A stretch of DNA of 32,000 nucleotides from Anabaena sp. FACHB-1237 (GCF_014696225.1 NZ_JACJPV010000003.1:104190-136189), one strand, 5' to 3'. Counted from the first letter of the stretch, positions 790 through 21,932 are shown. The notes: generated by a model not told the origin, from the sequence alone. Made by a program: numbers and translations.

Positions 790-846
790 TTTTCTGGTTT
801 TGTCGTGTATTTTTGTAATTTAGTAGCCATCAGCCGTCAGCTATCA

Positions 847-864
847 CCTATCCCTATCCCTATC
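847..864. repeat. Tandem hexamer CCTATC x3 in the cpcG-cpcG intergenic region
   Basis: Read directly: cctatc cctatc cctatc. Confidence 0.8.
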
Positions 865-914
865 AGTCGGTAGGGGTAAACTAGTTTCTGGTTGCCGGTT
901 TTAGCACTGCTAAA

Positions 915-945
915 CCTCAACTCCCAACTCCTCACTCCCCACTCC
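915..945. repeat. STRR-like tandem heptamer (TCCNNAC x4) in the cpcG-cpcG intergenic region
   Basis: Read directly: cctcaac tcccaac tcctcac tccccac tcc. Short tandemly repeated heptamers are typical of heterocystous cyanobacteria. Confidence 0.75.
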
Positions 946-955
946 TTCATCTTTT

Positions 956-1792
956 TTAGTAGGTTTGAGTTCCAGGAATATAACGATAGGGTAGGGAGAC
1001 TGCTACAGGTTTAACTGTGGGTTGTTCTTGGTTATCTCTGCTGGTATCAGGTATAGCAACGCTATTAACGTAAGATTGCGCTGTAGCTAAACTACGTTGG
1101 TAGTTCTGTTCATTGGTGATTATTGTTCCGGCCATGGCAAAGAAGTTAGCAGGAATAGCACGCCGTATATCTGCTGTGGTCAGTTGTCCAGAGGTACGAA
1201 TGCTGTAGAAGGATCTGCCACTGTACTGCCGCATGGCTTGAACATCGCGCCAATATTGGTTGTATCTAGGATTAACTAGGTTAAAGGGGCGATCGCCAAA
1301 ACGACGACGCTGGAATGGTACAATGTCATCACCAAAATTTTCTAAATATTCATCAGAGTCTACTAAAGCATCTACAAAGCCATGATAACCTTGAGTAGAA
1401 ATGACAATAGACCAGGCTATTTCTTCATCTTTGCTATAAGATGAACGGCCTAAAAATCTTTGTAAACTAATATTAACTAAACGATAGTTAGAATTTGTAT
1501 CCACAATTTGACTGCGGAAAACTTCTGATTTTCCTAAACCGCGAATAAATTCTCGGACGTTAATTGCTCGGTTTCTCAGTTGAGATTCTAAGCCAGTTTG
1601 CCGATAACTAGCTAATATTAAATGTTCGCTGAAAATTTGCCGATAGGATGCCCAAATCACAGCATCAATATCTTCACTGGAAGTAGCATTAGCTAAACGA
1701 TAAATAGTAGGTGTATCTTCGTTAGCAATTTCGTAACCGTCTACTCTTTGGTTTTGTGTTGTTGGTGCGTATTCTAATAATGGTATTGACAT
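956..1792 (-). CDS. cpcG: Phycobilisome rod-core linker polypeptide CpcG (proximal paralog)
   Basis: 278-aa ORF starting [21 protein letters not shown]. It is clearly paralogous to the 46-789 product, with the same PBS-linker motifs ([29 protein letters not shown]). Confidence 0.9.
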
Positions 1793-1950
1793 CTTTACTT
1801 TTACCTTGTTATATGGTATGTAGATTGTTTCAATTTTGGGTATTGCTGATTAATATCTCACGCAAAGGTGCGAAGAAAAAGACTGTTCCAGGTTGTTTTT
1901 TTTTGGTTTGATCCTGTATTGATGCAATGTGCAATTTTTCAATTATTTCA

Positions 1951-2006
1951 CTAAGCTGTTGTGCCTTTAACTTGAATAATTAATACAAGCAAGATGCTTG
2001 TGCTAC
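1951..2006. repeat. Dispersed ~56-nt hairpin-containing element, an inverted copy of 18038-18093
   Basis: ctaagctgttgtgcctttaacttgaataattaatacaagcaagatgcttgtgctac matches the reverse complement of 18038-18093 except for a few positions. It contains the hairpin caagca-aga-tgcttg. Confidence 0.8.
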
Positions 2007-2052
2007 TGTAACTTCAGGTTTTTTAATTATACAGTGAGTGCTGCACATTAGC

Positions 2053-2649
2053 TTAGTTGTTAGCCATTAGCACACGAGCGCGAACTGCTTTTTCTGTGTC
2101 GTTGGTCAGCATTTCCTGAAATTTGCTCAATATTGGTGATCTCACTTCAGGTATTTTGGCCATTGCTTGTAATCCTACTACGGCTGCATAACGAATTGAC
2201 CAATCTGTGTCTTGACAAATCCACAGTAAGGTTTCTACGGCGCGGTTGATAGCTGTGCTTTGTTCACTAGCTGGTAATTTTTGCCATTGTAGGTTTCCTA
2301 ATCCTTTAATTGCAGCACGACGCACACTGGGCGCAAAGTCAGTTAAAACTATAGAGATGAAAATATCTAAAGCACGGGGATCAGCGATCGCTGCCAAACT
2401 GCGAATCGAGTAAGCCCGTGCGCCATAGTTATAATCATCTATTTGAGACAGTAGTTGTGGTACTGCCTGTTCTCCTAACTCTATTAACCCTGCTACTGCG
2501 GCCATAGCTGCTCCTGGGTTGTTATAGCCAAAGACTTTAATTAAGGTAGGAATAGCGGCGGGATCTTTTGCTGCTGCTAGGTTTTGGACTGCTTGCACCA
2601 TTTGTGCTGGTGTTTGTGCCAGATTAACTGCTTGAATTAATTCAGTCAT
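2053..2649 (-). CDS. cpcF: Phycocyanin alpha-subunit phycocyanobilin lyase subunit CpcF
   Basis: 198-aa HEAT-repeat protein in the canonical position after cpcE. It has repeated A(A/V)xxL motifs of PBS-lyase HEAT repeats (SVRRAAIKGLGNL, IRYAAVVGLQAM). Confidence 0.85.
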   Translation of the reverse strand: MTELIQAVNLAQTPAQMVQAVQNLAAAKDPAAIPTLIKVFGYNNPGAAMAAVAGLIELGEQAVPQLLSQIDDYNYGARAYSIRSLAAIADPRALDIFISIVLTDFAPSVRRAAIKGLGNLQWQKLPASEQSTAINRAVETLLWICQDTDWSIRYAAVVGLQAMAKIPEVRSPILSKFQEMLTNDTEKAVRARVLMANN

Positions 2650-2667
2650 TTGCTTCAGTCATGAACC

Positions 2668-3498
2668 TTACAACAGTGAATCCATCAAATTCATTACTTG
2701 GATAGCATCAGGGGAAATACTGAAATTTTCAGGATCATTTCCTAGTTGATATTCTAGTAAGCCTTTGAGGGACATGAGTTTGAAACTATTTTCTGCTTGT
2801 GCTTGAGCGATCGCCTTGGCTGCTGCCAGATAGCCAATAGCCCCCAAATCTCCCAAAACCACTCTACGCAACTTAATATCACCTTCTGCCAACCATTTCA
2901 CTAATTTTTCCCCATAAGTGGAATCTTGAGTTAGTTGGTACATTGCTCTATTAGCTGCACATTCTACCCTGGGGATAGGATGCTGTAAAAATGGTTCAAT
3001 CAAGGAAATAGCCTCAGTTGCGCCAATAGCTCCCAAGGCTTCTAATACTGCTTCATAGGGCTGGGTCAGATGGGGGCGGCCGGGTATTTGCACTGCCCGG
3101 GCTACTCCCCCATCTAATAGCTTGATCAATGAGGTAATAGCTGATTTATCACCCAACATAGCTAATGATTGGGCTGCGGCTTCGCGCACGTAAAAATCAT
3201 CACATTCCAAACACTTAATCAAACCTGGGACAGCTTTCAAATCACCCAATTTACCTAAAGATCGGGCTGCATTGCGGCGGAGAGGATAACCGCCCAATTC
3301 TGTGCGATCGTCTTCATCTTCTAAAGCTGCAATTAATTTATCTATAGCTTCTGGTTGGTTGATCTGATAGTGTCCTAGCCACCATGCAGCATAATAGCGG
3401 AGACTTAAATCTGATGATTGCAGATTAGCAATGGCTAGTTCTGGTGTGAGTTGAGGTGCATTCTCAGCAGAATATTCTTCTCCAGTGGTTTCTATCAT
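2668..3498 (-). CDS. cpcE: Phycocyanin alpha-subunit phycocyanobilin lyase subunit CpcE
   Basis: 276-aa HEAT-repeat protein (LRYYAAWWLG, RRNAARSLGKLGD, YVREAAAQSLAMLGD). It lies between cpcD and cpcF, 18 nt upstream of cpcF. Confidence 0.88.
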   Translation of the reverse strand: MIETTGEEYSAENAPQLTPELAIANLQSSDLSLRYYAAWWLGHYQINQPEAIDKLIAALEDEDDRTELGGYPLRRNAARSLGKLGDLKAVPGLIKCLECDDFYVREAAAQSLAMLGDKSAITSLIKLLDGGVARAVQIPGRPHLTQPYEAVLEALGAIGATEAISLIEPFLQHPIPRVECAANRAMYQLTQDSTYGEKLVKWLAEGDIKLRRVVLGDLGAIGYLAAAKAIAQAQAENSFKLMSLKGLLEYQLGNDPENFSISPDAIQVMNLMDSLL

Positions 3499-3514
3499 TG
3501 CTAAGGCGTAATGC

Positions 3515-3754
3515 TTATTCTGCCACAGTCAAAGGCTCAATTTTAACAATTCTGCCACCTAGACGGCTAATGCGCTGCATTTCTTCATTCATGCGGCTGT
3601 AGGGTACGGTAATAAATACGCTACCACTATGACGAATGCTGAATTGATTTTTGTCAGTTTCTTGGTTTTGCTTTAAACCGACAACTTCATAACGAAATAC
3701 ACGGCTGGCAGATGAAGAAACGCTACTTGCACCAAGTGTGGTTTGACCAAACAT
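3515..3754 (-). CDS. cpcD: Phycobilisome rod-capping linker CpcD (small CpcD-domain protein)
   Basis: 79-aa ORF with the motifs RVFRYEVVGL ... FITVPYSRMNEEMQRISRLGGRIVKIEP, a typical CpcD domain. Confidence 0.9.
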   Translation of the reverse strand: MFGQTTLGASSVSSSASRVFRYEVVGLKQNQETDKNQFSIRHSGSVFITVPYSRMNEEMQRISRLGGRIVKIEPLTVAE

Positions 3755-3847
3755 TACTCTAGATCTCCTATGTTTAAGGTTTAAGGTTTAAGTCTAAAAC
3801 CAAAATCACCTATTACAGCGATTTTCATTTATCGCTCAACATTGACC

Positions 3848-4708
3848 TTAGGTTGAAGTGACGCTGACAATTTTGCCACCCATTCTATGAATTTGTTGCA
3901 TTTTGTCTGAAAGGCGCTCATAAGGTACAATGAATACTGTGCTACTCCGACGCACGCTGGGGTATCCCGGATTGCGAATGCCTGCCACTTCCAGACGGTA
4001 AACGCGATCCGATGTCCCTACAGCATTGCCTAGGTTTTGTTTGGGTGCTACATCCGCAGATGCACGGAATCCCCAACCATTGTTAGTTCCTGATGGTCCA
4101 ACAATAGAGGAAGATTTACCACTAGCTAATTCCCGTGCTAAACGAGATTTAGTACCTTCTACTTGAGAGGTATCACTGTTAGCATATCCTCTGTATAAAC
4201 GGAACATCCGAGTAAAACTAGCAGAGGTTTGGCCGGCTTGAAAGTTAAAACCGCGATAATAGGGAACTACATTATCACCGAAGTTGTTTTGATACTCTTC
4301 CGAATCAATGTAGGAGTCTATTTCTGCGTCGTAACCTTCGTTAATATATAAGTCTAAGTGGTATGTTACTTCAGACTCATCTATAGGAGCGCGACCCAAC
4401 AGGTGTTTATAGTTGAGTTCGATTAATCTGGTTTGGAAACTGTTATAGAAGAACTTATTTTTGTACAGTTCTGATTTAGCCACGCTACGGACAAATTCCC
4501 GTACTGTCAGATTACCGTCTCTTAATAAAGACTCTGGACCTACCAAGCGTTCAGAAGCCATCAAGTAGTCGTTACCTAAAACTTGCCGATAGACAGCACG
4601 AATCACTAACTCTACTTCATCTCTGCTGGCGTTAGCGCGAAGTTCTACCTTCCGTCCTTCGCTAAAAGGCTCTGTGCCTAATCTGGATGCTGCTGTTGTA
4701 ATTGCCAT
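3848..4708 (-). CDS. cpcC: Phycocyanin-associated rod linker CpcC
   Basis: 286-aa ORF with an N-terminal PBS-linker domain ([33 protein letters not shown]). It also has a C-terminal CpcD-like domain (RVYRLEVAG ... [25 protein letters not shown]). Confidence 0.92.
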
Positions 4709-4777
4709 TTTTTCCCCTTTATTTTGCCAAGTTTGGGCTGAATAAAGATTGCTAGAGATAGCAAATCTGCATTACTG

Positions 4778-4827
4778 CATAAAACTAAATAAAACTAGAT
4801 AAAACCACATAAAACTACATAAAACTA
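4778..4827. repeat. Tandem decamer (NATAAAACYA x5) in the cpcA-cpcC intergenic region
   Basis: Read directly: cataaaacta aataaaacta gataaaacca cataaaacta cataaaacta. Confidence 0.85.
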
Positions 4828-4992
4828 TGCCCGGAGCTAGATCCAACTGCTAGGTGAATGAGGTTTTGGAAATTTTCGCCACGTTTTGATCACATTGAAT
4901 CTGAACGCAGTGATTCCCCCATAAATCTCTGGCGAACCCCTTAGGGTTAATTTCCATCTAGCAATTACATCCCTCTCCGGGCATGAAGCTAT

Positions 4993-5481
4993 CTAGCTTA
5001 GTGCGTTGATAGCGTAGTCAATGTAGGTGTTAGCTTCGTTAGCAGCTTGACCGCCTAAACCGTGATTAGCTTTGATATATTTTAAAGCTTCTACATACCA
5101 GCTAGGAGACAAGTTGAAAGCACCGTTGATTTCAGCTAAACCAGCGATTAAGATTTCATCCAAAGGACCAGTTCCACCAGCTACTAAGCTGTAAGTGATG
5201 ATGCGTAAGTAGTGGCCGATGTCACGAGCGCACTTAGCTTTACCGCGAGCATCAGAAGCAAATTCTGCACCGGGGGTAGAGGTGGTGTAAGGATATTTTT
5301 GGTAAACAGCGTTAGCAGCACCGTCAATTAATTTTTGAGCGTTTGCGGTTAAACCACGAGCAGCTTCCATGCTGGCAACGGCACGTACAAAACGACCATT
5401 AACAGCTTGTAATTCGGTGTTGCTTAAGAAACGTCCTTGGGTATCAGCAGCTGCAATAGCTTCGGTAATTGGGGTTTTCAT
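4993..5481 (-). CDS. cpcA: C-phycocyanin alpha subunit
   Basis: 162-aa ORF starting [27 protein letters not shown]. It contains [17 protein letters not shown] with the bilin-attachment Cys context. Confidence 0.97.
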
Positions 5482-5568
5482 GGTTGAATATCTCCTAGAA
5501 TCTTCTTTGGGTTTTTGTTGGCAGAAGCTATTATTTAGCCTCTAAGTGTTCTGAAAGTTTTGTAATGA

Positions 5569-6090
5569 TTAAGCAACAGCAGCCGCAGCGCGGTCAAAGT
5601 AGCTTGCTAATTCAGAAACTAAAGAACTACAATCACCTTTGGTGATACCGTTAGGGTCATTAACGATGGAAATTGCAGCTTCTTTCATTTTGCCAACGCC
5701 AACTGCCACAGAAGCACCAGGTACGCCTAATGCTTGGTAGGTTTCGCGTAAGCCATTTAAGCAACGGTCATCCAGAACACTAGCATCACCAGCGATCGCA
5801 GCGTAGGTAACATAGCGTAAGATAATTTCCATGTCGCGTAAGCAAGCAGCAGCGCGACGGTTGGTGTAAGCGTTACCACCAGGAGCTACTAATTGAGGTT
5901 GATCTGCAAATAAGGAACGAGCAGCACTGGTAACGATGTCTTTAGCATTGCTTGTAATACGGTTAACAACGTCTAAACGTTTGCTGCCAGCACTTACAAC
6001 TGCGGTTAAAGCATCTAGTTGTTCGGTGCTTAAAAATTCGCCTCTAGCGTCAGCTTGGGAAACAACCTTGGTGAATACATCTAATGTCAT
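5569..6090 (-). CDS. cpcB: C-phycocyanin beta subunit
   Basis: 173-aa ORF starting [21 protein letters not shown]. It contains [17 protein letters not shown] and a C-terminal DCSSL second bilin site. It is the first gene of the operon. Confidence 0.97.
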
Positions 6091-6776
6091 GGACTCTAAA
6101 TCTCCTAAAATTAATGGATTGAGAGATGTCTAGATAAATACTAATTTTTGGGATCAATGTTTAATTCAGATTGCTTGTGTTTACAAGCGTGCAATTATGA
6201 GAAACAGATAGGAATTTATGAGAAACTAGCTAACTGGTTTGTTTTGCTGGTTTATGCAACTTCTGTCTGTTGTTTGACCCCTACAGTTTATGTTTATACA
6301 ATGTCTTTGGGTCATTGTTTGTTACAAATTATGAATAAATAAGATGCTGTAATAATAAATCCCTCAAATCCTTTACATATAAGGCATAGAGATGATAAAA
6401 ATCTCAGTTTTTCGTTACATAACTTTACAATAATTGTAAAGAATCAGAAATTTTCATAGTTTAATATTATTTTTATAATTGCTGTAAGCCTTATCATGAT
6501 TGCGTTTGATCCAGTTTGTTGTATCTGTATTGATTGCTAAATTTGTCAAGGTTTGTAAACTTTATCTTTCTTAATTTTTGGAAAAAATTTGAAAAAAATT
6601 TTTACAATATCCCCCTAGAGGGCATCCCAGTGAATAAAAATCTTTATGCACAGTTTAGCAAGGATCTGAAATATTTTAAGGAAATTTTAAGAATTAGGAG
6701 ATCAAGTTTATACCTTGCAAATATGTTATCCGTGTTATATATTTGATGATATATAACCTAATTAACAGTATTGTAT

Positions 6777-7097
6777 ATGGCAAATAAGCAATTAGTTGAG
6801 TTCGCTTTAGATAGCGGCACTATTTTGGTAGAAGTTGAAGAATCGGTAGATATAGCTATTGAGAGAGTTGCTTTACCATCTGGGCGAGAAATTGCTAAAG
6901 CACAAAAGTCTTTTGAGGAAGCCATAGATAATATTAAGCCATTGGTAACCAATATTGCTAATAAGTTTCAAGACTTAGAACCAAAAGAAATGGAAGTTAA
7001 GTTTGGCATCAAACTAAGTGCTGATGCAGGTGCGTTTATAACTTCTGTAGGTGGGGAAGTTAATTTTGAGATTACGGTGAAGTGGAGTAAAGATTAG
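6777..7097 (+). CDS. Trypco2-like (trypsin-co-occurring domain 2) small protein
   Basis: About 106 aa counted from the ATG at 6777 (the ORF track starts at a TTG at 6771). The C-terminal motif EVKFGIKLSADAGAFITSVGGEVNFEITVKW matches my memory of the Trypco2 / CU044_2847-type family. Its stop lies 13 nt before the trypsin-like protease gene. Confidence 0.7.
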   Translation: MANKQLVEFALDSGTILVEVEESVDIAIERVALPSGREIAKAQKSFEEAIDNIKPLVTNIANKFQDLEPKEMEVKFGIKLSADAGAFITSVGGEVNFEITVKWSKD

Positions 7098-7110: not shown

Positions 7111-7980
7111 ATGTCAAATGAAAATTACTTTCAGGTCTTTAAAAGTGCGATCGCTCGCATTTATAATCAAAACGGTAAAGTTGTTGGTGCTGGTTTTTTA
7201 GTAAGTCAGTACCATTTTCTTACCTGCGCTCATGTGGTGACAGCAGCTTTAAGTATTGTTACCAGCACACAACAATCACCAGATGGAATTATAGAGGTTG
7301 ATTTTCCCCTCATTGCACCTGGGCAAAAAGTAAAAGCCAAAGTTGTATTTTGGCAACCTGTCAACCCAGGACAAAGTAAGGAAGATATTGCCGGACTACA
7401 CATACAGGATACTCTACCAACAGGAGTGAGTCCTGTAAAACTTGTCACCACATCAGATTATTGGCAACATAAATTCCGCATCTTTGGCTTTCCCCAAGGA
7501 CATGATGCTGGTGTTTGGGCTGACGGTGAACTGCGTGATATTCAAGCTACACGCTGGATACAGATAGAAGCCATTAAAGTTCCTGGGTATCAAATTGAAC
7601 CTGGTTTTAGTGGATCTCCTGTGTGGGATGAATCATTACAGGGAGTTGTGGGAATGGCTGTGGCCGCAGAGAAAAAGCGAGAGAATGTGAAAGCGGCATT
7701 TATGATGCCTACAACAGTGTTAGTGGAAACTTGGGATTTTTTAAATCAAACTGTTGAACAACAAGCAATAAATTCGTTTCCTTCTTTAAGTCGAGTCCAA
7801 GAAATTAAAGCTAAGGAATTGAACAAAAGATTAGTAATTTTAGAAGGCGATTATGAAGCAGTTTACAACCAATTGAATTATACAGAAAATGCCGAAAGTC
7901 GTAATAATTTACAACGACAATTAAATAGAATTGAACAGGATATGAATAAGATTGTCGAACAGTTAAAAATGATCAAGTGA
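7111..7980 (+). CDS. Trypsin-like (S1/chymotrypsin fold) serine protease with a C-terminal helical adaptor tail
   Basis: 289 aa. Catalytic triad contexts are LTCAHVV (His), EDIAGLHI (Asp) and EPGFSGSPVWD (Ser). The last ~65 aa are heptad-like and helical (LNKRLVILEGDYEAVYNQLNYTENAESRNNLQRQLNRIEQDMNKIVEQLK). Confidence 0.85.
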   Translation: MSNENYFQVFKSAIARIYNQNGKVVGAGFLVSQYHFLTCAHVVTAALSIVTSTQQSPDGIIEVDFPLIAPGQKVKAKVVFWQPVNPGQSKEDIAGLHIQDTLPTGVSPVKLVTTSDYWQHKFRIFGFPQGHDAGVWADGELRDIQATRWIQIEAIKVPGYQIEPGFSGSPVWDESLQGVVGMAVAAEKKRENVKAAFMMPTTVLVETWDFLNQTVEQQAINSFPSLSRVQEIKAKELNKRLVILEGDYEAVYNQLNYTENAESRNNLQRQLNRIEQDMNKIVEQLKMIK

Positions 7981-8243: not shown

Positions 8244-9344
8244 ATGGAGATTTTTTATAACATGAAAAAAGCTGACAATATCAGAATTAAAAAGTTAGAA
8301 GAAGAATTTAATCAGAAGAAAAAAGATTACGAAGATACTTGTGACAAATTAAATGAAACCTACGATCCTGAAATCAAAAATAAACTAAATTTAAAAAAAG
8401 ATCGTCTTGAAAGAGAAATGCAAGAAAAGGAGGACGAAATAGAAAAACTAAAATCCTCTACTTCCTATAAAGATGTTACTGAAAAACCAATTTCTCCCTA
8501 TTTAACAATTTTATGTAACCGCACAGAACAAAAATCTCAAATAGAAGAAGAATATAAAAAATTTAAACAGCAAAATTCATATCGTTCCTTGGTTTTTGTC
8601 GTTCATGGTGATGAAAAACAATCTCATGAATCCTTTTTAATTCGGATGCAAGAGTTTATCCTTCCCAAATCAATAGAATCTATATCATACAGATTTAGAA
8701 AACATTTCCTAGAATGGCCTTTAAAATTTGATAATCTCAGAAATCGCTTATTGAAAAATCTATATGAAAATATTTTTAAAAATACGGATGTTTCTCACGA
8801 TAAAATTAAAGATTATTTTATTCAATCATCTAGTGAAGAGTTGATTTTTTATACTGTTATCACAACTAAAAATTGGCAAGAACAAGGATTTAAAATTCTG
8901 GATGAACTATTAAATTTTTGGCAATGGTTGTATAATGAAAATATCATAGAAAAACAAGTAATTATCTGTGTTTTAATTAAATACAAAAATGATGGTAAAA
9001 AAATTAATATAATAATTGAATGGATTAAATCTATCTTCAATTTTAAAAGTCATCATATAACTAATAAAAAAATCTATGCTCATCTAAAATCAATAAACAG
9101 AGACAATAAATTTAATGATTTATTGATCATTTCAGTAGAAGAACTAAATTCAATAACTATCCAAGATGTGAATAACTGGACACATCGTGAGATTATAGAT
9201 TTTATTGACAAAACTAAGATTAATAAATTAAATAGGAAAATTAACCAAATATTTCATGATTGGAAAAAACAAAATTCATCGGAATCAATTCCTATGATGG
9301 AATTAGAGGAACATTTGTCAAAATTACTAGAGGAATTAACATGA
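8244..9344 (+). CDS. Coiled-coil adaptor + P-loop-less STAND-like (iSTAND-type) protein
   Basis: 366 aa. The N-terminal ~75 aa are helical and alignable to the protease tail (DYEDTCDKLNETYDPEIKNKLNLKKDRLEREM). Next comes LCNRTEQKSQIEEEYKKF...SLVFVVHGDEKQSHESFLIRMQEFILP, the strand-loop-helix position where STAND NTPases carry a Walker A. No GxxxxGK[ST] motif occurs anywhere in the protein. The stop overlaps the next gene's start (ATGA). Confidence 0.6.
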   Translation: MEIFYNMKKADNIRIKKLEEEFNQKKKDYEDTCDKLNETYDPEIKNKLNLKKDRLEREMQEKEDEIEKLKSSTSYKDVTEKPISPYLTILCNRTEQKSQIEEEYKKFKQQNSYRSLVFVVHGDEKQSHESFLIRMQEFILPKSIESISYRFRKHFLEWPLKFDNLRNRLLKNLYENIFKNTDVSHDKIKDYFIQSSSEELIFYTVITTKNWQEQGFKILDELLNFWQWLYNENIIEKQVIICVLIKYKNDGKKINIIIEWIKSIFNFKSHHITNKKIYAHLKSINRDNKFNDLLIISVEELNSITIQDVNNWTHREIIDFIDKTKINKLNRKINQIFHDWKKQNSSESIPMMELEEHLSKLLEELT

Positions 9345-10327
9345 AATTACCAATTTACACAGGTACAGGAAACCGTCAAGGAGAACTACCCAAACAACTT
9401 CCAAATTCTTCCCTTTCTCGATTACTCAATCCAGAAAAATACATTGCTGATCAAGGTTTGCGAGATGCTTGTAATGTGGCATTATTATTAGGACAACCTT
9501 TATTACTCACTGGAGAACCAGGAACAGGAAAAACTCAATTAGCTTATAGTCTCGCTTGGGAATTGGGACTTGGTGAAGTTTTAAAATTTGAAACTAAATC
9601 TACTAGTATTGCGCGGGATTTGTTCTATACTTATGATGCCTTAAAGCGATTTCAAAATGTACAAACTGGCTTTGCTTCCACTCAAATTTTAGATTACATC
9701 ACTTATCAAGCATTAGGAAAAGCAATTTTATGTACTCGCAATTTGGAAGAAGTTAAAGAATTTTTACCATTAGAATTTTCTGATAATGGACAGAAGCGTT
9801 CTGTAGTTTTAATTGATGAAATTGATAAAGCACCCCGTGATTTTCCCAATGATTTACTTAATGAATTGGAATTGATGTATTTTCGGATTCCAGAATTAGG
9901 TAATCAAAAAATAGAAGCAGATGCAAAATTGCAACCAATTGTAATTATTACTAGCAATTCGGAAAAAGATTTACCAGATGCTTTTCTGCGACGTTGTATT
10001 TATTATCATCTGCCTTTTCCTGATAATGAACGACTGAAGAATATTATTGCTAATCGGTTAGGAATGAATATTAATGATCCCTTTTTGCAATCAGCTATTA
10101 GTTTATTTGAAAAATTACGTAAAAGTGGTTTGAACAAGCAACCTGGAACTGCTGAATTATTAAGCTGGATTGTTGCTTTACAAAGGTTTAGTAGTATTCC
10201 AGATAATCTTTTAATTCAACTTAATGCTGATTTAATTAACTCTACTCTCAGTAGCTTAATTAAAACTCAAAATGATCAAGAAAAAGCTAAAAAGGTTGTA
10301 GAACAATGGATAAAAGAACAGAAATAG
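9341..10327 (+). CDS. MoxR-class AAA+ ATPase
   Basis: Walker A is LLLTGEPGTGKTQLA and Walker B is VVLIDEIDKAP. Sensor-1 is IVIITSN, and an Arg-rich FLRRC follows. The start is taken as the ATG at 9341, which overlaps the upstream stop (ATGA), rather than the ORF-track start at 9260. Confidence 0.85.
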   Translation: MKLPIYTGTGNRQGELPKQLPNSSLSRLLNPEKYIADQGLRDACNVALLLGQPLLLTGEPGTGKTQLAYSLAWELGLGEVLKFETKSTSIARDLFYTYDALKRFQNVQTGFASTQILDYITYQALGKAILCTRNLEEVKEFLPLEFSDNGQKRSVVLIDEIDKAPRDFPNDLLNELELMYFRIPELGNQKIEADAKLQPIVIITSNSEKDLPDAFLRRCIYYHLPFPDNERLKNIIANRLGMNINDPFLQSAISLFEKLRKSGLNKQPGTAELLSWIVALQRFSSIPDNLLIQLNADLINSTLSSLIKTQNDQEKAKKVVEQWIKEQK

Positions 10328-13182
10328 AAGATAACTTAGATTGGCTAAATCCTGATGTTTTGCTAGAGTTTATTGATAATCTGAGAAACGCAGGTTATAA
10401 TATCGGCATATCTCAATATATTGCAGCACAGGATTTAATTTTGATTCTGACTTCTCAGGGTGAAAATTTGGATAATCCAGAAAATTTGAGAAATTTACTA
10501 GCACCAATATTTTGCAGTTCACCAACTGAACAGGAACAATTTAACCAGTATTTTGATAGCTCTTTTAAATCTGTTCATAAAATTAGTGATTTACAAGAAG
10601 AAACAACACTAGAAAACCCAATATCTTTAGAAGATGAGAAAAAACTAAAATCTCGTTCTCTTTTGTTAATCTTAATTTTGTTAATCTTAATAGTTATTGT
10701 TGCATCAGGAATCCCTTTATTTTTAAAATTCAGTGGTTCTGATAATAATACACCAGGTACAGGTTCTACTAAAACACCAACACCTATTCCTATACCATCA
10801 ACATTACCAACAACAAAACCTACCAATATACCAGATAAAACTTCTATAAGTTGTACTGATAACAAACCCCCAAATCCTATTAACTGGCCAAGAGAAATAG
10901 CATTTTTCTTAACTCCTGCTACTGTGTTTTTTATTATTAGAATGTGGTGGTTTTGGTTAAGTCGTCAGTTGTTTTTACGACGTTATGGAACTACAACTCA
11001 ACCTGAATTACAGAATATTTCTATTGCTGATTTTGATATTGAGCAAGAATTATTCCCAACAATGATTTTTATGCAAATCGCTCGCAATCTCAGACGACGT
11101 ATTTCCATTCCTTCTAATGAATTAGATATAGAAAAAACTATTGATGCAACTTTGCGTCAAGGAGGATATTTAAAACCAATATATCGTAATTATCAAATAC
11201 TTCCAGAATATTTGTTTTTAGTTAATCGTACCAGTTTTCAAGATCATCAAGCTCAATTTATAGAAGAAATAATTAAGCGTCTTAAACAAGAAAATGTTTT
11301 AATTACCAGTTATTTTTTTGATGATGATCCTTTAATTTGTTTTCCTAGTCAGGGAGAAAGTTCTCCTCTCAGACTGGAGGAAATTATCCGTAAATATCAT
11401 CAGCATTATCTAATTTTAGTTTCAGATACAGAGAATTTTTTTAGTATTATTAGTGGTGAATTAGAACCTTGGGTAAGTGAATTAATAAATTGGCAAAGTC
11501 GAGCTTTTCTTACTCCCAAACCCATAAATAATTGGGGTTATCAAGAGTTTCAAATAGCTCAACAATTCATCATTTTACCTGCTACACCAGCAGGGTTACA
11601 GTTATTTAGCCTATTTAGCCAAAAATCCTGGAATCAAGATACATTGAAGTTTTTATTTTTGCAGGAGACAAGTTCAGCAATACCCATACCACAAACGCTG
11701 CGACTTCAATCTTATCGCTGGTTACAACGTAATTCTCCAGAACCGGAAAAAATTGCAACAATGCTAATTTCTCTACGGGAATATTTAGGTGATGATAGTT
11801 TTTATTGGTTTTGTGCTTGTGCTGTTTTTCCTGAGTTGCAATGGAATATAACTATTTATTTGGGTAATGTGCTGAAAACAGAGTTAGGAAAATCTCTTTT
11901 AGAGGTTGATTCTTTGACTACTTTAGCTCGTTTACCTTGGTTTCGTTCTGGTTATATTCCTGACTGGTTGCGTGTTTATTTGATTAAAGAATTGACTCAG
12001 AAACAAGAACAGGAAATTAGAACGGCGCTAAAAAATTTACTCAATCAGGTTAATGATACTTCTGAAAATAAGTTGAAGTTATCAATAGTCAAAACATCTG
12101 TAAAAACTATTGCTGAAGATGGTCTATTAAAAGATTACCTGTTTCTGGATTTTATGACTAAACCATCTTTACTTGATTTTAAAGTACCAGAAAAGTTTAA
12201 TAAGTTATTACCAAAATCCAAAAATCAAGGTTCTAAAAAAACACAAATCAACCGCAGACGATTTTTGCAGATGCTTGGGTTAGGAAGTGCAGGTTTTGTT
12301 GCAGCAGTAGCAGGTAATCAGGTTTTGAAACCGAAAGAACCTACAATAGCTTCTCGTAATTGCAAGTTTGAGGTATTAACAGTAAATTCTCAAGGACAAA
12401 TTATCTCCCGTGTCTTTAGTCAAGCAACGTTTTTTACTGAAGATTTGGGTAATGATATTACTTTGGAGATGGTGGAGATTCCTGGTGGTTCTTTTAATAT
12501 GGGTTCACCAGAGTCAGAAAAGGGTTGGAATAATAATGAAAGTCCACAACATGAGGTAAATGTACCTGCTTTTGCTATGGGTAAATTTGCGGTGACTCAG
12601 GAACAGTATCAACAAGTTATGGGCGAGAATCCTTCTGGGTTTAAAGGAGCAAAACGTCCTGTAGAAACCGTTTCTTGGAATGATGCGGACAAGTTTTGTA
12701 AGAAGCTGAATCAAATTACTCAAAAAACTGGACGTAGTTACAGATTACCCAGTGAGGCAGAATGGGAATATGCTTGTCGTGCAGGGACGACTACACCCTT
12801 TCATTTTGGGGAAACGATTACCAGTGACTTAGCTAATTATGACGGCACTGTGACTTATGCTTCTGAGGCACAAGGTATATATAGAAAACAGACAACAGAT
12901 GTCGGTAGTTTTGCGCCTAATAGCTTTGGTTTGTATGATATGCATGGTAATGTTTGGGAATGGTGTCAAGATAATTGGCATGATAATTATAAAAATGCGC
13001 CTAAAAATGGTAGTGCTTGGACTAGCCAAAGCGATGATAGACAAGTGCTGCGTGGTGGTTCGTGGTTCAGCCTTCCTGATAACTGCCGTTCTGCCATCCG
13101 CAGCAACTACTTCAACCGCGATAACAGGAGCATCGATTTCGGCTTTCGCGTTGTTTGTCTTGTCGTAGCGAGGACTTTTTAG
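10306..13182 (+). CDS. DGR target protein: CoxE-like N-terminal module, two TM helices flanking a Pro/Thr-rich loop, a large central domain, an internal Tat-signal-like TM segment, and a C-terminal FGE-sulfatase (C-type-lectin fold) domain carrying the VR
   Basis: 958 aa. The start overlaps the MoxR gene by 22 nt. The N-terminus LLEFIDNLRNAGYNIGISQYIAAQDL...EQFNQYFDSSF resembles the helical N-module of CoxE-type partners of MoxR/CoxD ATPases. TM segments are SLLLILILLILIVIVASGIPLFL and IAFFLTPATVFFIIRMWWFWL. An internal NRRRFLQMLGLGSAGFVAAVAG is also present. FGE-sulfatase motifs are IPGGSFNMGSP, ETVSWNDADKFC, LPSEAEWEYACRAGT, YDMHGNVWEWCQD and RGGSW...GFRVV. Confidence 0.85.
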   Translation: MDKRTEIEDNLDWLNPDVLLEFIDNLRNAGYNIGISQYIAAQDLILILTSQGENLDNPENLRNLLAPIFCSSPTEQEQFNQYFDSSFKSVHKISDLQEETTLENPISLEDEKKLKSRSLLLILILLILIVIVASGIPLFLKFSGSDNNTPGTGSTKTPTPIPIPSTLPTTKPTNIPDKTSISCTDNKPPNPINWPREIAFFLTPATVFFIIRMWWFWLSRQLFLRRYGTTTQPELQNISIADFDIEQELFPTMIFMQIARNLRRRISIPSNELDIEKTIDATLRQGGYLKPIYRNYQILPEYLFLVNRTSFQDHQAQFIEEIIKRLKQENVLITSYFFDDDPLICFPSQGESSPLRLEEIIRKYHQHYLILVSDTENFFSIISGELEPWVSELINWQSRAFLTPKPINNWGYQEFQIAQQFIILPATPAGLQLFSLFSQKSWNQDTLKFLFLQETSSAIPIPQTLRLQSYRWLQRNSPEPEKIATMLISLREYLGDDSFYWFCACAVFPELQWNITIYLGNVLKTELGKSLLEVDSLTTLARLPWFRSGYIPDWLRVYLIKELTQKQEQEIRTALKNLLNQVNDTSENKLKLSIVKTSVKTIAEDGLLKDYLFLDFMTKPSLLDFKVPEKFNKLLPKSKNQGSKKTQINRRRFLQMLGLGSAGFVAAVAGNQVLKPKEPTIASRNCKFEVLTVNSQGQIISRVFSQATFFTEDLGNDITLEMVEIPGGSFNMGSPESEKGWNNNESPQHEVNVPAFAMGKFAVTQEQYQQVMGENPSGFKGAKRPVETVSWNDADKFCKKLNQITQKTGRSYRLPSEAEWEYACRAGTTTPFHFGETITSDLANYDGTVTYASEAQGIYRKQTTDVGSFAPNSFGLYDMHGNVWEWCQDNWHDNYKNAPKNGSAWTSQSDDRQVLRGGSWFSLPDNCRSAIRSNYFNRDNRSIDFGFRVVCLVVARTF
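13042..13172 (+). repeat. DGR variable repeat (VR) at the 3' end of the target gene
   Basis: 131 nt homologous to TR 14857-14984. All substitutions map to adenines of the TR, and there is one extra in-frame codon. It encodes [43 protein letters not shown]. Confidence 0.93.
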
Positions 13183-13420
13183 CTCTTTGCACTCTTGCGC
13201 TTTTGCGCTATACTCTTTCTTTTCTTTCTTCTATGTCGAGCGTAGCGAGAAAAATTTTTTTTGTCAGAATCAGGATGTCCAGGATGTAAGGATTTACAGG
13301 ATGGGTTGATAGTTTTATGGATGGGTTTTTAGATTAAAATTATTATTAAGTGATATTTAACCAAAATAGTATATAATATATAAGTTGTAAATAATCAAGT
13401 CAAAATTTTTCATAAATTCA

Positions 13421-13783
13421 ATGAGCGAATTATCCATTATCCAAAAAACCTACGATTTGATTAAATGGTATGTACCAATTATCAATCGTCTTCCTAAAGA
13501 GCATAAATTTACACTAGGTGATAGAATGATCAATAGTTTATATGAACTACTAGATGGGTTAATTATTGCTCGGTATGCTAAGGAAAAATTGACAAAATTA
13601 GAGGTGTTAAATAGTCAGTTAGATATTCTCCGCTATCAAACGCGATTATTATTAGATTTTCAATTAATTCCTGGTCATCGTTATGAATATGTGGGAAAAT
13701 CAATTAATGATATTGGTATGGAATTAGGTGGCTGGATTAAAGAACAAAATAAAAGCAAGAGTATTAATCTTAAAACAAAATGA
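13421..13783 (+). CDS. avd: DGR accessory variability determinant (Avd, four-helix-bundle protein)
   Basis: 120 aa. The motifs [30 protein letters not shown]...[11 protein letters not shown]...[10 protein letters not shown] match the Avd/four-helix-bundle family pattern. The stop overlaps the RT start (ATGA). Confidence 0.85.
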
Positions 13784-14838
13784 AACGATACGGTAATCTT
13801 TATTCTCAAATTGTTGATTTTGAAAATATCCTCACAGCCAGCAAAAAAGCCCAAAAAAGTAAGCGATTTCGCCCAAATGTTCTGGAATTTAATTATAATT
13901 TAGAAAGTAACCTCAACAAATTACAACAAGATTTAGTCAACAAAATTTATCAACCAGGTGAATATAGAACATTTTATATTAAAGAACCAAAAACTCGGAT
14001 GATTTCTGCTGCACCATACCGAGATAGGATAGTTCACCATGTCTTATGTAATATTATTATGCCTTTAATTGAACCAACATTTATTGGTGATTCCTATGCA
14101 AATCGTCAGGGTTTTGGTACTCATCGTGCTTTACGTCGGTTTGTAAAGTTTGCTCGTTCTAATCGCTATGTTCTTCAATGTGATATTGAGAAATATTTTC
14201 CTAGTATTGACCATGAAATTCTCAAGATTTTGTTACGACGTAAATTAAAATGTCCTGATACATTGTGGTTAATAGATACTTTAATTGATAATAGTAATGA
14301 ACAATTTTCAGTAGTTGACCATTTTCCAGGAGATAAATTATTAGAACCATTACAAAGACGACGCGGTTTACCCATTGGTAATTTAACCAGTCAGTTTTTT
14401 GCTAATGTTTATCTCAACTATTTTGATCATTTTATTAAAGAACAGCTAAAAATTGAGAAATATTTACGTTATGTGGATGATTTTGCTTTGTTTTCTAATG
14501 ATAGGGAATTGTTAGTTGATGCTAGATATGCTATTGAAGAACACTTAGCAGGATTAAGGCTTAAAATTCATCCTACAAAAAGTCAATTATTTGAAACAAA
14601 ACATGGTGCTAATTTTTTAGGTTTTCGTATTTTACCAAACCAGATTCGAGTCCGCACAGAAAATTTGCGTCGGGCAAAACGCAGAATAAAAAAAATGCAG
14701 GATGACTATATTGATGGTAAGATTAGTTTAGAAAAAGTATCCCAATCAATTCAAAGTTGGTTTGCTCATTTAGAGCATGGGGATACGTGGCAATTAAAAC
14801 AACAGCTATTTGCTACTCTCACTTGGATGAGAGGGTAA
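13780..14838 (+). CDS. DGR-type reverse transcriptase
   Basis: 352 aa with RT motifs [28 protein letters not shown] (the DGR-typical [ILV]GxxxSQ), YVDDF (YxDD catalytic), KIHPTKSQ and FLGFRI. It lies between avd and the TR. Confidence 0.92.
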
Positions 14839-14856
14839 AGAAGGGATGGGCAGCCC

Positions 14857-14984
14857 CAAGTGCTGCGTGGTGGTTCGTGGAACAACAATCCTGAAAACTG
14901 CCGTTCTGCCAACCGCAACAACAACAACCGCGATAACAGGAACAACAATATCGGCTTTCGCGTTGTTTGTCTTGTCGTAGCGAG
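14857..14984 (+). repeat. DGR template repeat (TR)
   Basis: 128 nt starting 19 nt after the RT stop. It is rich in AAC/AAT codons in the VR reading frame (AAC AAC AAT ... AAC CGC AAC AAC AAC AAC ... AAC AAC AAT) and identical to the VR at every non-A position. Confidence 0.93.
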
Positions 14985-15285
14985 CGCTCTTTTGTACCAG
15001 AACTGACGGATGTGAATGCGTTAGGCGTGTCAAAGAAGAGTCCAGACCTGTTCCTGTGATGTTGGTGACAACATCCGAAAATCAAACTCGGTGGGGTAGC
15101 TTAGTAAGTTTGCTGAAAGGTTGCTTCACCCTCTAAATAGGGCTTGCTGAATAAATGTAAAACCTAGATAAATCAAGGGTTTGAGGTGGAAAATAAGGAA
15201 ATAGATGCAAGATTTTCAAGGGGGAGACTCTGAAAAGCGTGCATTTTGGGTTGAATAAATCACAAAATTGAGGGATCGCAGATAG

Positions 15286-17965: not shown

Positions 17966-18093
17966 GTAGCGCAAGCATCTTGCTTGCATTAATGTAAAAA
18001 AGTAGCGCAAGCATCTTGCTTGCATTAATGTAAAAAAGTAGCGCAAGCATCTTGCTTGTATTAATTATGGAAATTAAAAGCACAACAGCTTAG
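17966..18093. repeat. 36-nt tandem repeat (2 full units plus a third unit continuing into the dispersed 56-nt element)
   Basis: Units gtagcgcaagcatcttgcttgcattaatgtaaaaaa lie at 17966-18001 and 18002-18037, and a third starts at 18038. Each contains the hairpin gcaagca-tct-tgcttgc. Confidence 0.9.
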
Positions 18094-20312: not shown

Positions 20313-20527
20313 AGATAGAAGCCAGTGAAAGTTTTTGAATTATACAATAACTAAGTCATATTACTCGCTTATGCTATTGATAATAATTTGTAATGATAAC
20401 ATTTGTTAACTATTGTAAATTTTTGTGTTATTGTAACAGAGTACACAATAATAATTTTCTAGTTCACCAGCGTTACCATATTTCCGCAATTTGCAAATTT
20501 AATTTAAACACTCAAGGTTTACATATC

Positions 20528-21487
20528 ATGTCCATTACCATTGACTCAGCTCGCAGTATTTTCCCCAAAACTTTATCTGCGGACGCTGTACCAGCAACTA
20601 TCGCTAGATTTAAACAACTCAGTGCCGAGGATCAATTAGCATGGACTTGGTTTGCTTATTTAGAAATGGGTAAAACAATCACAATAGCTGCTCCTGGTGC
20701 TGCTAGTATGCAGTTTGCGGAACCAACGCTTAATCAAATTCGGAATATGACTTTTGCTGAACAGTCACAGGTGATGTGTGACTTAGCAAATAATGCTGAT
20801 ACACCGATTTGCCGCACCTACGCTGCTTGGTCTGCAAATATCAAATTAGGCTTTTGGTATCAACTTGGACAATGGATGGATCAAGGTATCGTTGCTCCTA
20901 TTCCAGCCAATTACCAACTTTCTGCTAACGCTGAAGCAGTTTTGCAAGCAGTTAGAGAACTAGATCAAGGTCAACAAATTACTGTTTTACGCAGTTCTGT
21001 AGTTGATATGGGTTATGATGTGAATAAGTTAGGCAATTACACTAGAGTTAGTGAGCCTGTTGTTGCACCCAAAGAAATATCACAACGCAGTAAAGTAACT
21101 ATTGAAGGTGTGAATAATTCAGTGGTATTAAGCTATATGAATAATATGAATGCCAATGATTTTGGTAGTCTAATTCAATTATTCGCAAATGATGGTGCTT
21201 TACAGCCTCCTTTTCAAAAACCTATTATTGGTAAAGATGCAATTCTGAGATTTTTCAAAGAAGAATGCCAAAACCTGAATTTACTTCCAGAACGGGGAGT
21301 TGTTGAAGCCGCAGAAGAGGGTTATACTCAGATAAAAGTTACTGGTAAGGTGCAAACTCCTTGGTTTGGTGCTGCGGTAGGAATGAATATGGCTTGGCGA
21401 TTTTTACTCAATCCAGAAGGTAAAATTTTCTTTGTAGCAATTGATTTATTAGCATCTCCCAAAGAACTTTTAAATCTGATTCGTTAA
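20528..21487 (+). CDS. ocp: Orange carotenoid protein (OCP1-type)
   Basis: 319 aa from the ATG at 20528. The sequence MSITIDSARSIFPKTLSADAVPATIARFKQLSAEDQLAWTWFAYLEMGKTITIAAPGAA ... KVQTPWFGAAVGMNMAWRFLLNPEGKIFFVAIDLLASPKELLN is near-collinear with the Synechocystis OCP as I remember it. The ORF-track extension to 20393 is rejected. Confidence 0.95.
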   Translation: MSITIDSARSIFPKTLSADAVPATIARFKQLSAEDQLAWTWFAYLEMGKTITIAAPGAASMQFAEPTLNQIRNMTFAEQSQVMCDLANNADTPICRTYAAWSANIKLGFWYQLGQWMDQGIVAPIPANYQLSANAEAVLQAVRELDQGQQITVLRSSVVDMGYDVNKLGNYTRVSEPVVAPKEISQRSKVTIEGVNNSVVLSYMNNMNANDFGSLIQLFANDGALQPPFQKPIIGKDAILRFFKEECQNLNLLPERGVVEAAEEGYTQIKVTGKVQTPWFGAAVGMNMAWRFLLNPEGKIFFVAIDLLASPKELLNLIR

Positions 21488-21519
21488 CATACTTTTTAGC
21501 AAGCTAAATAATTACTCAG

Positions 21520-21550
21520 GCGCTCTTTATTAGAGAGCGCTTTGTTTTTT
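21520..21550 (+). terminator. Intrinsic terminator after ocp
   Basis: gcgctct-ttattag-agagcgc (7-bp GC-rich stem) followed by tttgtttttt. Confidence 0.8.
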
Positions 21551-21580
21551 AAGTAGTTTTTTAAGTAGTTTTTTAAGTAA
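21545..21580. repeat. 12-nt tandem repeat (ttttttaagtag x3)
   Basis: Read directly between the ocp terminator and the frp start. Confidence 0.85.
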
Positions 21581-21599
21581 ATATTGGAGAGCAGTACAA

Positions 21600-21932
21600 G
21601 TGAATGAAGTAGAATGGTCTGATACGGAGAAAGAAATAGCAAAGGAAGCATTTAATAAAGCTTATGTTAGAGAAGTTAATAATTTGATTAAAGAAGTTCG
21701 TGAACTAGCAAATTCAATTTCTGAATTGAATCATTTATGGCAATTACACGATTTTTTAAGTGCCAGAAGGCACGAAATAGATGGTAAGTATGATTACCGT
21801 GACTCAGTGCTGATTTTTGTTTTTGCTAGACTGGTTAATGAAGGTTTGTTGGATATCAAGGAACTAGAAGGATTGAACAAAGATAAACTGATTAAAATAG
21901 CTGCTCTTGCACGTATGCAAAATTTTACTTGA
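21600..21932 (+). CDS. frp: Fluorescence recovery protein (FRP)
   Basis: 110 aa with a GTG start. LWQLHDFLSARRHEIDGKYDYRDSVLIFVFARLVNEGLL matches the conserved FRP core (LHDFLS..RHEIDGKYD.R.SV.IFVFA.L). It is immediately downstream of ocp, as in other cyanobacteria. Confidence 0.9.
   Translation: MNEVEWSDTEKEIAKEAFNKAYVREVNNLIKEVRELANSISELNHLWQLHDFLSARRHEIDGKYDYRDSVLIFVFARLVNEGLLDIKELEGLNKDKLIKIAALARMQNFT

Follow-up and report, generated by a model that had tools for sequence, protein, structure and literature searches.

INTRODUCTION

The prototype of the diversity-generating retroelements (DGRs), that of the Bordetella phage BPP-1, is arranged as mtd-avd-TR-brt, with the template repeat (TR) placed before the reverse transcriptase (RT) gene, and it diversifies a phage tail fibre. 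Other DGRs reside in bacterial chromosomes, as is observed for the cyanobacterial elements known as Lineage 4, which include two of Nostoc sp. PCC 7120 (PMC5758913; PMC7517822). Here we describe a locus within a 32,000-nucleotide (nt) stretch of DNA from Anabaena sp. FACHB-1237 (NZ_JACJPV010000003.1, 104190-136189; called the window below, with positions counted from its first letter). We regard this locus as very probably a chromosomal DGR of the cyanobacterial lineage, with the order target gene (carrying the variable repeat, VR), avd, RT, TR and structured RNA, which rewrites the tip of the FGE-sulfatase (FGS) domain of its target.

The locus resembles the BPP-1 element in several respects. 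Its RT carries the equivalents of R74, D138, I181-G182, Q187 and D215/216, it encodes an Avd protein, its mutagenesis is adenine-specific, and its VR lies at the C-terminus of a C-type-lectin (CLec) fold. In both systems structured RNA flanks the template, and this RNA includes a tetraloop hairpin as well as a long-range duplex. However, TR lies behind the RT gene rather than before it, the RNA resembles the Rfam motif RT-14 whereas the BPP-1 spacer is RT-10 (PMC5737381), and we found no GC-rich cruciform directly past VR. The target, moreover, is no tail fibre but a membrane protein of the cell, part of a system for conflict or signalling. In comparison with the Lineage 4 DGRs there is no essential difference, and the locus is another strain's copy of such an element. 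These DGRs are likewise cyanobacterial, chromosomal and not associated with phages, and they share with the locus a target of the CLec/FGE type with a multidomain N-terminus, Avd, an AAC-rich TR and in-frame insertions or deletions (indels) by AAC runs.

The genes that surround the retroelement also have described counterparts. Kaur et al. (2020) reported MoxR-vWA ternary conflict systems, among them an iSTAND variant, and noted their transmembrane (TM) segments (PMC7159879). In the same account, FGS-bearing components are linked to DGRs, FGS is the commonest effector of the iSTAND systems (~22%), and the DGR linkage is quantified for VMAP systems, at ~80% in cyanobacteria (PMC7159879). The present operon agrees with the iSTAND systems in its pairing of Trypco1 with a trypsin, in the EAD9 domain that its peptidase and its iSTAND protein each carry, in its MoxR-like AAA+ ATPase, and in its large third protein with TM segments, a C-terminal FGS domain and an adjacent DGR. 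It departs from them in that Pfam gives no match for a vWA domain in the third protein and structure comparison supports one weakly. An FGE-sulfatase-type CLec scaffold that carries a VR is also found in TvpA of Treponema denticola (PDB 2Y3C), although TvpA is a lipoprotein without the vWA/TM module and its DGR belongs to another lineage.

Two earlier studies bear on the RNA that flanks the template. Weinberg et al. (2017) found the motifs RT-1 to RT-19 near RT genes, of which RT-10 alone was tied to a DGR (as the BPP-1 spacer) and RT-14 was left without a function, and they proposed, as a speculation, a role in further DGRs for other RT motifs (PMC5737381). For cyanobacterial DGRs, Handa et al. 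predicted an Avd-binding stem-loop with a GNRA tetraloop downstream of TR, as well as a 'cPRT Stop' duplex formed by sequence upstream of TR with sequence downstream of it (bioRxiv 10.1101/2023.10.23.563531).

The DGR type, the RT-then-TR order, the AAC indel, the flanking RNA and the iSTAND/MoxR host system are thus already described, and the locus leaves current understanding unchanged. What it adds is a well-preserved DGR example in which all cis and trans parts are mapped to the nucleotide. Three leads go slightly past the literature: the link to RT-14, a conserved VR 3ʹ flank, and an internal signal of the twin-arginine translocation (Tat) type before the variable domain. To our knowledge, the cyanobacterial DGR lineage has never been studied biochemically. 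Because the FACHB culture collection keeps FACHB-1237, the locus is usable for experiments. It could serve as a test of the Bordetella cis-priming RNA mechanism in an RT-then-TR architecture, of the role of the RT-14-like RNA, and of the role of a hypervariable sensor within an iSTAND/MoxR conflict system.

RESULTS AND DISCUSSION

Substitutions between the template and variable repeats fall only at template adenines

A shared flank of 24 nt occurs exactly twice in the window, at 13042 and 14857, where it opens VR and TR, respectively (Table 1). A gapped global alignment of the two repeats (128 versus 131 nt) contains 13 substitutions, eight of them A-to-T, four A-to-G and one A-to-C. All 13 fall at adenines of TR, and 0 of the 93 non-A positions of TR are changed. 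If 13 mismatches were scattered at random over the 128 positions of TR, the probability that every one would land on its 35 adenines is 7e-9. The altered span is framed by arms that are identical in the two repeats, of 24 nt on the 5ʹ side and 34 nt on the 3ʹ side.

VR is one codon (3 nt) longer than TR, and the difference lies opposite the (AAC)4 run, where four codons of TR face AGC AAC TAC TTC AAC in VR. The same length difference follows from the repeat finder, which recovers the pair in two blocks with offsets of 1815 and 1812 nt. A preliminary description of this DNA had claimed that the repeats differ only at TR adenines and that none of about 90 non-A positions differs. For the substitutions both claims hold, including under the alignment check for non-A mismatches. 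Its count of about 15 substitutions agrees with the 15 obtained when the gap is set against an AAC that is unmutated; the number (13 or 15) varies with the gap position. It had printed the extra VR codon correctly but had not flagged the one-codon difference in length.

The distribution of adenines in TR also fits the DGR design and is uneven with respect to the reading frame of VR: codon positions 1, 2 and 3 hold 16, 16 and 3 of the 35, and the codons of TR include 11 AAC and two AAT. By a rough hand calculation from the genetic code, these 13 codons together with GAA, GAT, AGG and ATC would allow ~10^17 protein variants. VR itself is in frame, has no internal stop, and ends 10 nt short of the stop codon of the target open reading frame (ORF). 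When TR patterns with A replaced by N were searched against the 32-kb window, only the two known sites were recovered (0 expected by chance), and no further VR-like site was found. With regard to the initiation of mutagenic homing (IMH) site of VR and its counterpart in TR (IMH*), the last 34 nt are the same and divergence begins directly past ...GCGAG. Any discrimination between VR and TR must therefore sit in the flanks.

Avd and the reverse transcriptase are intact and related to those of Bordetella

The protein encoded by avd scores 141.9 bits against the NCBIfam model DivGenRetAVD (curated cutoff 80) and 76.2 bits against Pfam bAvd (cutoff 40), and its sole relatives in the PDB are Bordetella Bbp7 (4dwl, 8.7e-4) and Avd (8ub7_B). 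The avd stop codon overlaps the start codon of the RT gene (ATGA). For the RT, the closest solved structure is Bordetella bRT (8ub7_A, E 1.2e-48), compared with 2.4e-20 for the best group II intron RT. The alignment with bRT conserves the fingertip EPKxRxISA with its arginine, the motif A aspartate (QCDIEKYF), IGNLTSQ and YVDD, and in the structure of bRT the equivalent residues touch the template and the dNTP (bioRxiv 10.1101/2023.10.23.563531). Because bRT is the best relative and these residues are conserved, the RT is assigned to the DGR clade. Models for group II intron RTs, retrons and defence-associated RTs (DRTs) give weak matches, all far under their curated cutoffs, and PADLOC has no model covering the target, Avd or the iSTAND proteins.

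These results bear out the remaining statements of the preliminary description. The VR was said to be in frame without stops, the RT to be intact with IGNLTSQ and YVDD, Avd to be intact, and the target to have a C-type-lectin fold. The ORFs agree in each case, Avd exceeds the curated DivGenRetAVD cutoff, and VR falls within the FGE-sulfatase/C-type-lectin domain. Its interpretation of the locus as a DGR is likewise supported, since all defining components are present and intact. The description mentions neither the structured RNA nor the iSTAND/MoxR operon that includes the target.

Structured RNA brackets the template

Conservation across 30 loci extends over approximately 150 nt that directly follow TR on its 3ʹ side. 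From the alignment of these loci, RNAalifold predicts 39 pairs in six helices, and compensatory changes occur at 31 of the 39. Standard pairs fill 96.4% of the alignment cells, versus 30-45% if the partners are slid by 1-3 columns, and 0 of 500 shuffles reach the observed pairing values. The window copy folds unaided into the consensus (-47.3 kcal/mol, z -2.39), and all of its helices are intact.

Two further elements involve sequence upstream of TR. The hairpin at the end of the RT ORF shows compensatory changes across 29 loci (e.g. CTCTTG..CAAGAG and CCCTCG..CGAGGG). In addition, TR is bracketed by an 8-bp long-range duplex, the pairing of which is kept in 28 of 29 loci, again with compensatory changes. 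Its downstream strand, CCTGTTCC, resides in an otherwise unpaired and conserved part of the RNA element 3ʹ of TR. By analogy, this duplex is a candidate for the 'cPRT Stop' duplex, and the RNA features at the locus match the predictions of Handa et al. for cyanobacterial DGRs. Helix H1 starts 2 nt past the end of TR/VR identity, a position that fits cDNA initiation at the 3ʹ edge of TR if H1 is likened to the TR:Sp duplex of BPP-1. The template-flanking RNA elements for cis-primed cDNA synthesis are therefore present, with a function that is predicted from sequence.

No Rfam family matches the window at gathering thresholds, and RT-14 (RF02921) surfaces only when E-value thresholds are applied. 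The match to RT-14 is full-length (model positions 1-144, 40.4 bits, E 3e-4), and the two RNAs share the order of their helices and the single-stranded segments CUCU, CCAGA, UUCCU, AAAAU, UAGUA and GAA. Seven related loci likewise score under the RT-14 gathering threshold, and current Rfam annotation therefore misses the cyanobacterial copies. By virtue of the same architecture, the orphan Rfam motif RT-14 appears to be a DGR template-flanking RNA.

The target protein combines a predicted membrane module with a diversified C-terminal domain

The target is predicted to begin with an N-terminal helical region and two TM segments (amino acids (aa) 118-136 and 198-216 by hydropathy) and to continue with a vWA-like domain in the cytoplasm, followed by an internal RRxFL/TM segment; the FGS domain, which carries VR, forms the C-terminus. 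Profile searches with the FGS domain retrieve PvdO (5hha, 3.2e-19) and T. denticola TvpA (2y3c, 9e-11). An AF2 model of aa 225-655 (pLDDT 75, pTM 0.73) was compared with known structures by Foldseek, and the top three matches are NorD vWA domains in NorQ(MoxR)-NorD complexes, with weak scores (E 2.9e-4, TM 0.25/0.40). The middle domain is thus probably a vWA domain, a grading that we adopted because Pfam gives no vWA match and the TM-scores are low.

The first 660 aa of the target form a conserved module that is present in 85 proteins with swapped C-terminal domains, including FGS, amidase, lysozyme, VanY, solute-binding proteins, WD40, pentapeptide, GUN4, CVNH and others. Deep within the 958-aa protein, at aa 650-676, RRRFLQ is followed by a G/A-rich hydrophobic stretch ending in AVAG. 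Of the 48 homologues checked, 21 have this twin-arginine-like motif, and most of these end in an FGS, amidase, lysozyme or solute-binding-protein domain, whereas no example of it turned up among the WD40, pentapeptide, GUN4 and MORN versions. The segment may be an internal Tat-type signal-anchor. The motif with its distribution among homologues and the hydropathy profile together suggest that the variable domain faces the periplasm.

The target protein is identical to RefSeq WP_313926224.1 (958 aa) of Anabaena sp. FACHB-1237, and a search with its last 319 aa gave a 100% match to a protein of this strain. Homologues in three other genera (loci L009, L014 and L017) are each encoded by a single ORF with ~50% identity over residues 1-951, and synteny together with this full-length identity supports the 958-aa form. 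GenBank lists a 473-aa version of the target (MBD2136446.1) with an internal start at Met486.

Related loci point to the cyanobacterial lineage

An RT scan of species-representative genomes yielded 51 loci, nearly all of them cyanobacterial, and RT relatives with 62-83% identity are spread over Nostocales and other cyanobacteria. The best relatives (82-83%) come from Anabaena cylindrica UHCC 0172, one Dolichospermum strain and a metagenome-assembled genome of an uncultured cyanobacterium (L040), and none of the genomes scanned holds an RT that is more than 83% identical. Self-BLAST revealed an A-biased TR/VR pair in ~35 of the 51 loci, mostly with TR ~20-50 nt past the RT match and VR upstream.

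In-frame differences in AAC-run length recur among these loci: the window VR differs from its TR by +3 nt, one VR of L002 by +6, that of L013 by -3 and that of L015 by -6. Wu et al. (2018) reported that ~7% of DGRs have TR/VR indels, that 74% of those indels are next to AAC, and that in-frame indels are nearly all found in or near the cyanobacteria-only Lineage 4 (PMC5758913). On the basis of this report, the AAC indel is a trait of the lineage rather than an anomaly. We considered the one-codon indel as a possible novelty and rejected it on the same grounds, as AAC-adjacent in-frame indels are documented and concentrated in the cyanobacterial lineage (PMC5758913). Both the AAC indel, which is in frame, and the order VR-avd-RT-TR agree with Lineage 4 as defined by Wu et al., an assignment that draws on common traits and on the similarity of the RTs.

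Orthologous targets are hypervariable within VR

Genomes and metagenomes of Dolichospermum/Aphanizomenon supplied orthologous targets whose N-terminal module is 76-78% identical to that of the window protein. These were compared with one another inside clusters with 90% identity or more. A subgroup of seven orthologues shows variation in 21 of 42 VR columns, versus 71 of the 965 that lie upstream of VR. The positions of this variation match Asn codons of TR, and the length of the AAC run spans several codons. Because the orthologues are hypervariable exactly in VR, the target family is active in nature, and these proteins, at ~78% identity, provide the sole direct evidence of diversification. 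The orthologous operon of Dolichospermum heterosporum still includes the target but has no avd-RT-TR beside it, and cassette and target can therefore separate, by loss or by relocation.

Two other features of the orthologous targets were recorded. Within the P0122 and P0124 clusters, two VR/TR types coexist, with the C-termini ...FSAARTL and ...SGAARTL. The orthologue P0213 has a 25-aa read-through of the usual stop codon.

Alternative explanations

Several observations weigh against the reading of the locus as an operating DGR with a vWA-like target. The one-codon length mismatch could reflect a change in TR after the last homing event. An exact-sequence look-up with the RT returned no record, two scans of metagenomes, one for the TR pattern with A replaced by N and one for the constant 3ʹ arm, gave no match and hence no variant VRs, and promoter and terminator scans around the cassette gave no signal above shuffled background. 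The RT-14 score of 40.4 bits is lower than the gathering score of 48.1 bits, such that the RNA is not an Rfam member by that criterion. Finally, the first 720 aa of the target contain no Pfam domain, vWA included, even at E 10, and the vWA assignment of the middle domain draws on weak Foldseek scores (TM 0.25-0.40). Some of these points, namely the length mismatch and the lack of variant VRs of FACHB-1237 from the RT look-up and the metagenome scans, as well as the D. heterosporum operon that has the target without an adjacent cassette, could also be signs of a fossil or dormant DGR. Such an element would have diversified VR in the past and would now leave it fixed, with homing silenced, a host factor missing, or one AAC lost from TR. 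We consider this unlikely. Recent homing is favoured indirectly by the complete lack of non-A differences (0/93) and the perfect identity of both arms, by intact avd and RT ORFs with conserved functional residues, and by the integrity of every RNA helix in the window copy, and in-frame AAC indels are normal in active members of the lineage (PMC5758913). We infer from these features that the DGR is probably active at present in FACHB-1237.

Two other explanations deny that the repeats are the work of a DGR at all, and both are extremely improbable. The existence of a direct repeat is all that speaks for an ordinary diverged duplication or gene-conversion tract, the copies of which would differ by normal mutation unrelated to the RT. 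This origin is refuted by the substitution spectrum, in which 13 of 13 changes strike adenines of one copy only (P ~7e-9), and it leaves unexplained both the concentration of adenines at positions 1 and 2 of AAC codons and the location of a non-coding copy 19 nt past a bRT-like RT, a geometry that is repeated in dozens of loci. An RT of another class (group II intron, retron or defence-associated), beside which the repeat is incidental, fares no better. The sub-threshold matches to models of those classes are expected for any prokaryotic RT and are far under curated cutoffs, whereas bRT leads among solved structures, its E-value being better by 28 orders of magnitude. Moreover, the adjacent Avd, the TR, and an RNA unlike that of an intron or retron all indicate a DGR.

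A proposed mechanism for target diversification

If the locus is a DGR as we propose, avd, RT, TR and the downstream RNA would be produced in one transcript. By analogy with the bRT-Avd complex of Bordetella, Avd and RT are expected to assemble on this RNA, and the GNRA-capped hairpin is a candidate for the Avd-binding stem-loop. Helix H1 might then place the cis-priming nucleotide such that cDNA starts at the 3ʹ end of TR, whereas the long-range duplex would close off TR and thereby confine the cDNA to it; both roles are proposed by analogy. The RT would copy C, G and U faithfully and misincorporate opposite A, for which the A-only pattern (13/13) is indirect evidence. The resulting cDNA would replace VR via the identical arms at its two ends, and slippage on the AAC run would occasionally shift the length of VR by whole codons (here, by +1 codon). 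The predicted product is new sequence on the ligand-binding face of the FGS/C-type-lectin domain, in the vWA-like component of a ternary system. Through this arrangement, the ternary system would gain a hypervariable, membrane-anchored sensor, probably on the outer side of the membrane.

A more far-reaching interpretation joins these elements, although we offer it tentatively and consider it doubtful as a whole. The internal Tat-like signal-anchor (aa 650-676), located behind two TM helices, might export the diversified FGS domain, making the target a polytopic receptor of a dual Sec/Tat type. The ectodomain might then signal via the cytoplasmic vWA-like domain to MoxR, iSTAND and the EAD9-coupled trypsin, which together would constitute a bacterial variable-receptor module for immunity or sensing. 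In the same interpretation, RT-14 would be the template-flanking DGR RNA of the lineage.

A conserved flank downstream of the variable repeat

Directly past the target stop codon lies a stretch with a pyrimidine-rich tract, in which a C-T-x-T motif repeats with an 8-nt period (invariant columns are 8 nt apart). This flank is conserved behind 27 VRs (alignment A4; loci L001, L002 and L005-L042), and it is also present behind the second or remote VRs examined, with L031 9614 as the sole exception. The fold of the window copy is not significant alone (z -0.85). A GC-rich cruciform like that of BPP-1 was not found directly past VR; the sequence there offers no more than a GCGC/GCGC stem of 4 bp and a weak hairpin, and the fold is not significant. 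As to its role, the conserved flank may be a terminator or a target-site element for retrohoming, and it could also be both.

The stretch between the target gene and avd contains, at 13261-13333, one copy of a ~109-nt unit. In D. heterosporum (L052 9085-9812), this unit is arranged in tandem, in about seven copies, where avd-RT-TR is missing. A 131-aa ORF called within that array is probably spurious.

Table 1. Positions of the DGR components and of the host operon genes in the window.
Feature	Position	Strand	Details
Target gene	10306-13182	+	DGR target; 958 aa
Twin-arginine-like motif and moderately hydrophobic segment	12253-12333	+	aa 650-676, RRRFLQMLGLGSAGFVAAVAGNQVL; directly before FGS
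FGE-sulfatase (FGS/C-type-lectin fold) domain	12466-13155	+	aa 721-950; Pfam PF03781, E 8.2e-60
VR	13042-13172	+	131 nt; 3ʹ end of target ORF 10306-13182
VR, constant 5ʹ arm	13042-13065	+	
VR, mutated span	13066-13138	+	
VR, constant 3ʹ arm	13139-13172	+	IMH-like
Conserved VR 3ʹ flank	13183-13262	+	pyrimidine-rich tract, then weak hairpin and T-run; directly past target stop codon
avd	13421-13783	+	accessory variability determinant; 120 aa; intact ORF
DGR reverse transcriptase	13780-14838	+	352 aa; intact ORF; Pfam RVT_1
Covarying hairpin	14816-14833	+	CTCTCA-CTTGGA-TGAGAG; end of RT ORF, upstream of TR
Long-range duplex, 5ʹ strand	14843-14850	+	GGGATGGG; partner CCTGTTCC at 15047-15054
TR	14857-14984	+	128 nt; begins 19 nt past RT stop codon; non-coding
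Structured RNA, RT-14-like	14983-15131	+	149 nt; directly 3ʹ of TR
Helix H1	14986-14992 with 15035-15041	+	structured RNA
Helix H2	15003-15011 with 15016-15024	+	structured RNA
GNRA-capped hairpin	15058-15075	+	GATGTTG-GTGA-CAACATC; structured RNA
Terminal hairpin	15089-15131	+	structured RNA; UAGUA/GAA internal loop
Trypco1 (trypsin-co-occurring domain)	6771-7097	+	first operon gene; Pfam PF19493, E 3e-25, 89.1 bits (cutoff 24.6)
Trypsin-like peptidase with C-terminal EAD9 adaptor	7111-7980	+	Trypsin_2 3.9e-14, EAD9 7.7e-22; predicted effector
EAD9-iSTAND (inactive STAND NTPase)	8244-9344	+	third member of the ternary system; Pfam iSTAND PF19995 57 bits (cutoff 24); EAD9 34.2 bits (cutoff 25)
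MoxR-like AAA+ ATPase	9260-10327	+	Pfam AAA_5 39.6 bits (cutoff 22), AAA; maximal ORF

Host operon and genomic setting

The target is a component of an iSTAND/MoxR ternary conflict system that also includes Trypco1, trypsin-EAD9, EAD9-iSTAND and MoxR proteins, and its role as the vWA-like member of this system is probable. The whole operon arrangement with the target recurs in L009, L014 and L017, in which the syntenic MoxR-like gene product is 66-70% identical to that of the window. The true start of the MoxR-like ATPase may be slightly downstream of 9260.

On the left, the operon is preceded by a phycobilisome rod operon (46-6090) with genes for phycobilisome-protein subunits, linker polypeptides and HEAT-repeat lyase subunits. 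On the right (20393-21932) are the genes for an orange carotenoid protein and FRP. No tRNA, tmRNA or phage genes were found near the DGR/iSTAND operon, and the context is therefore chromosomal. A prophage context was considered and rejected for this reason and because photosynthesis housekeeping genes reside on either side. Between a response-regulator gene and an HPP gene, at 17966-18065, there is a 36-nt tandem repeat (2.8 copies, 98% match) with the palindrome GCAAGCATCTTGCTTGC.

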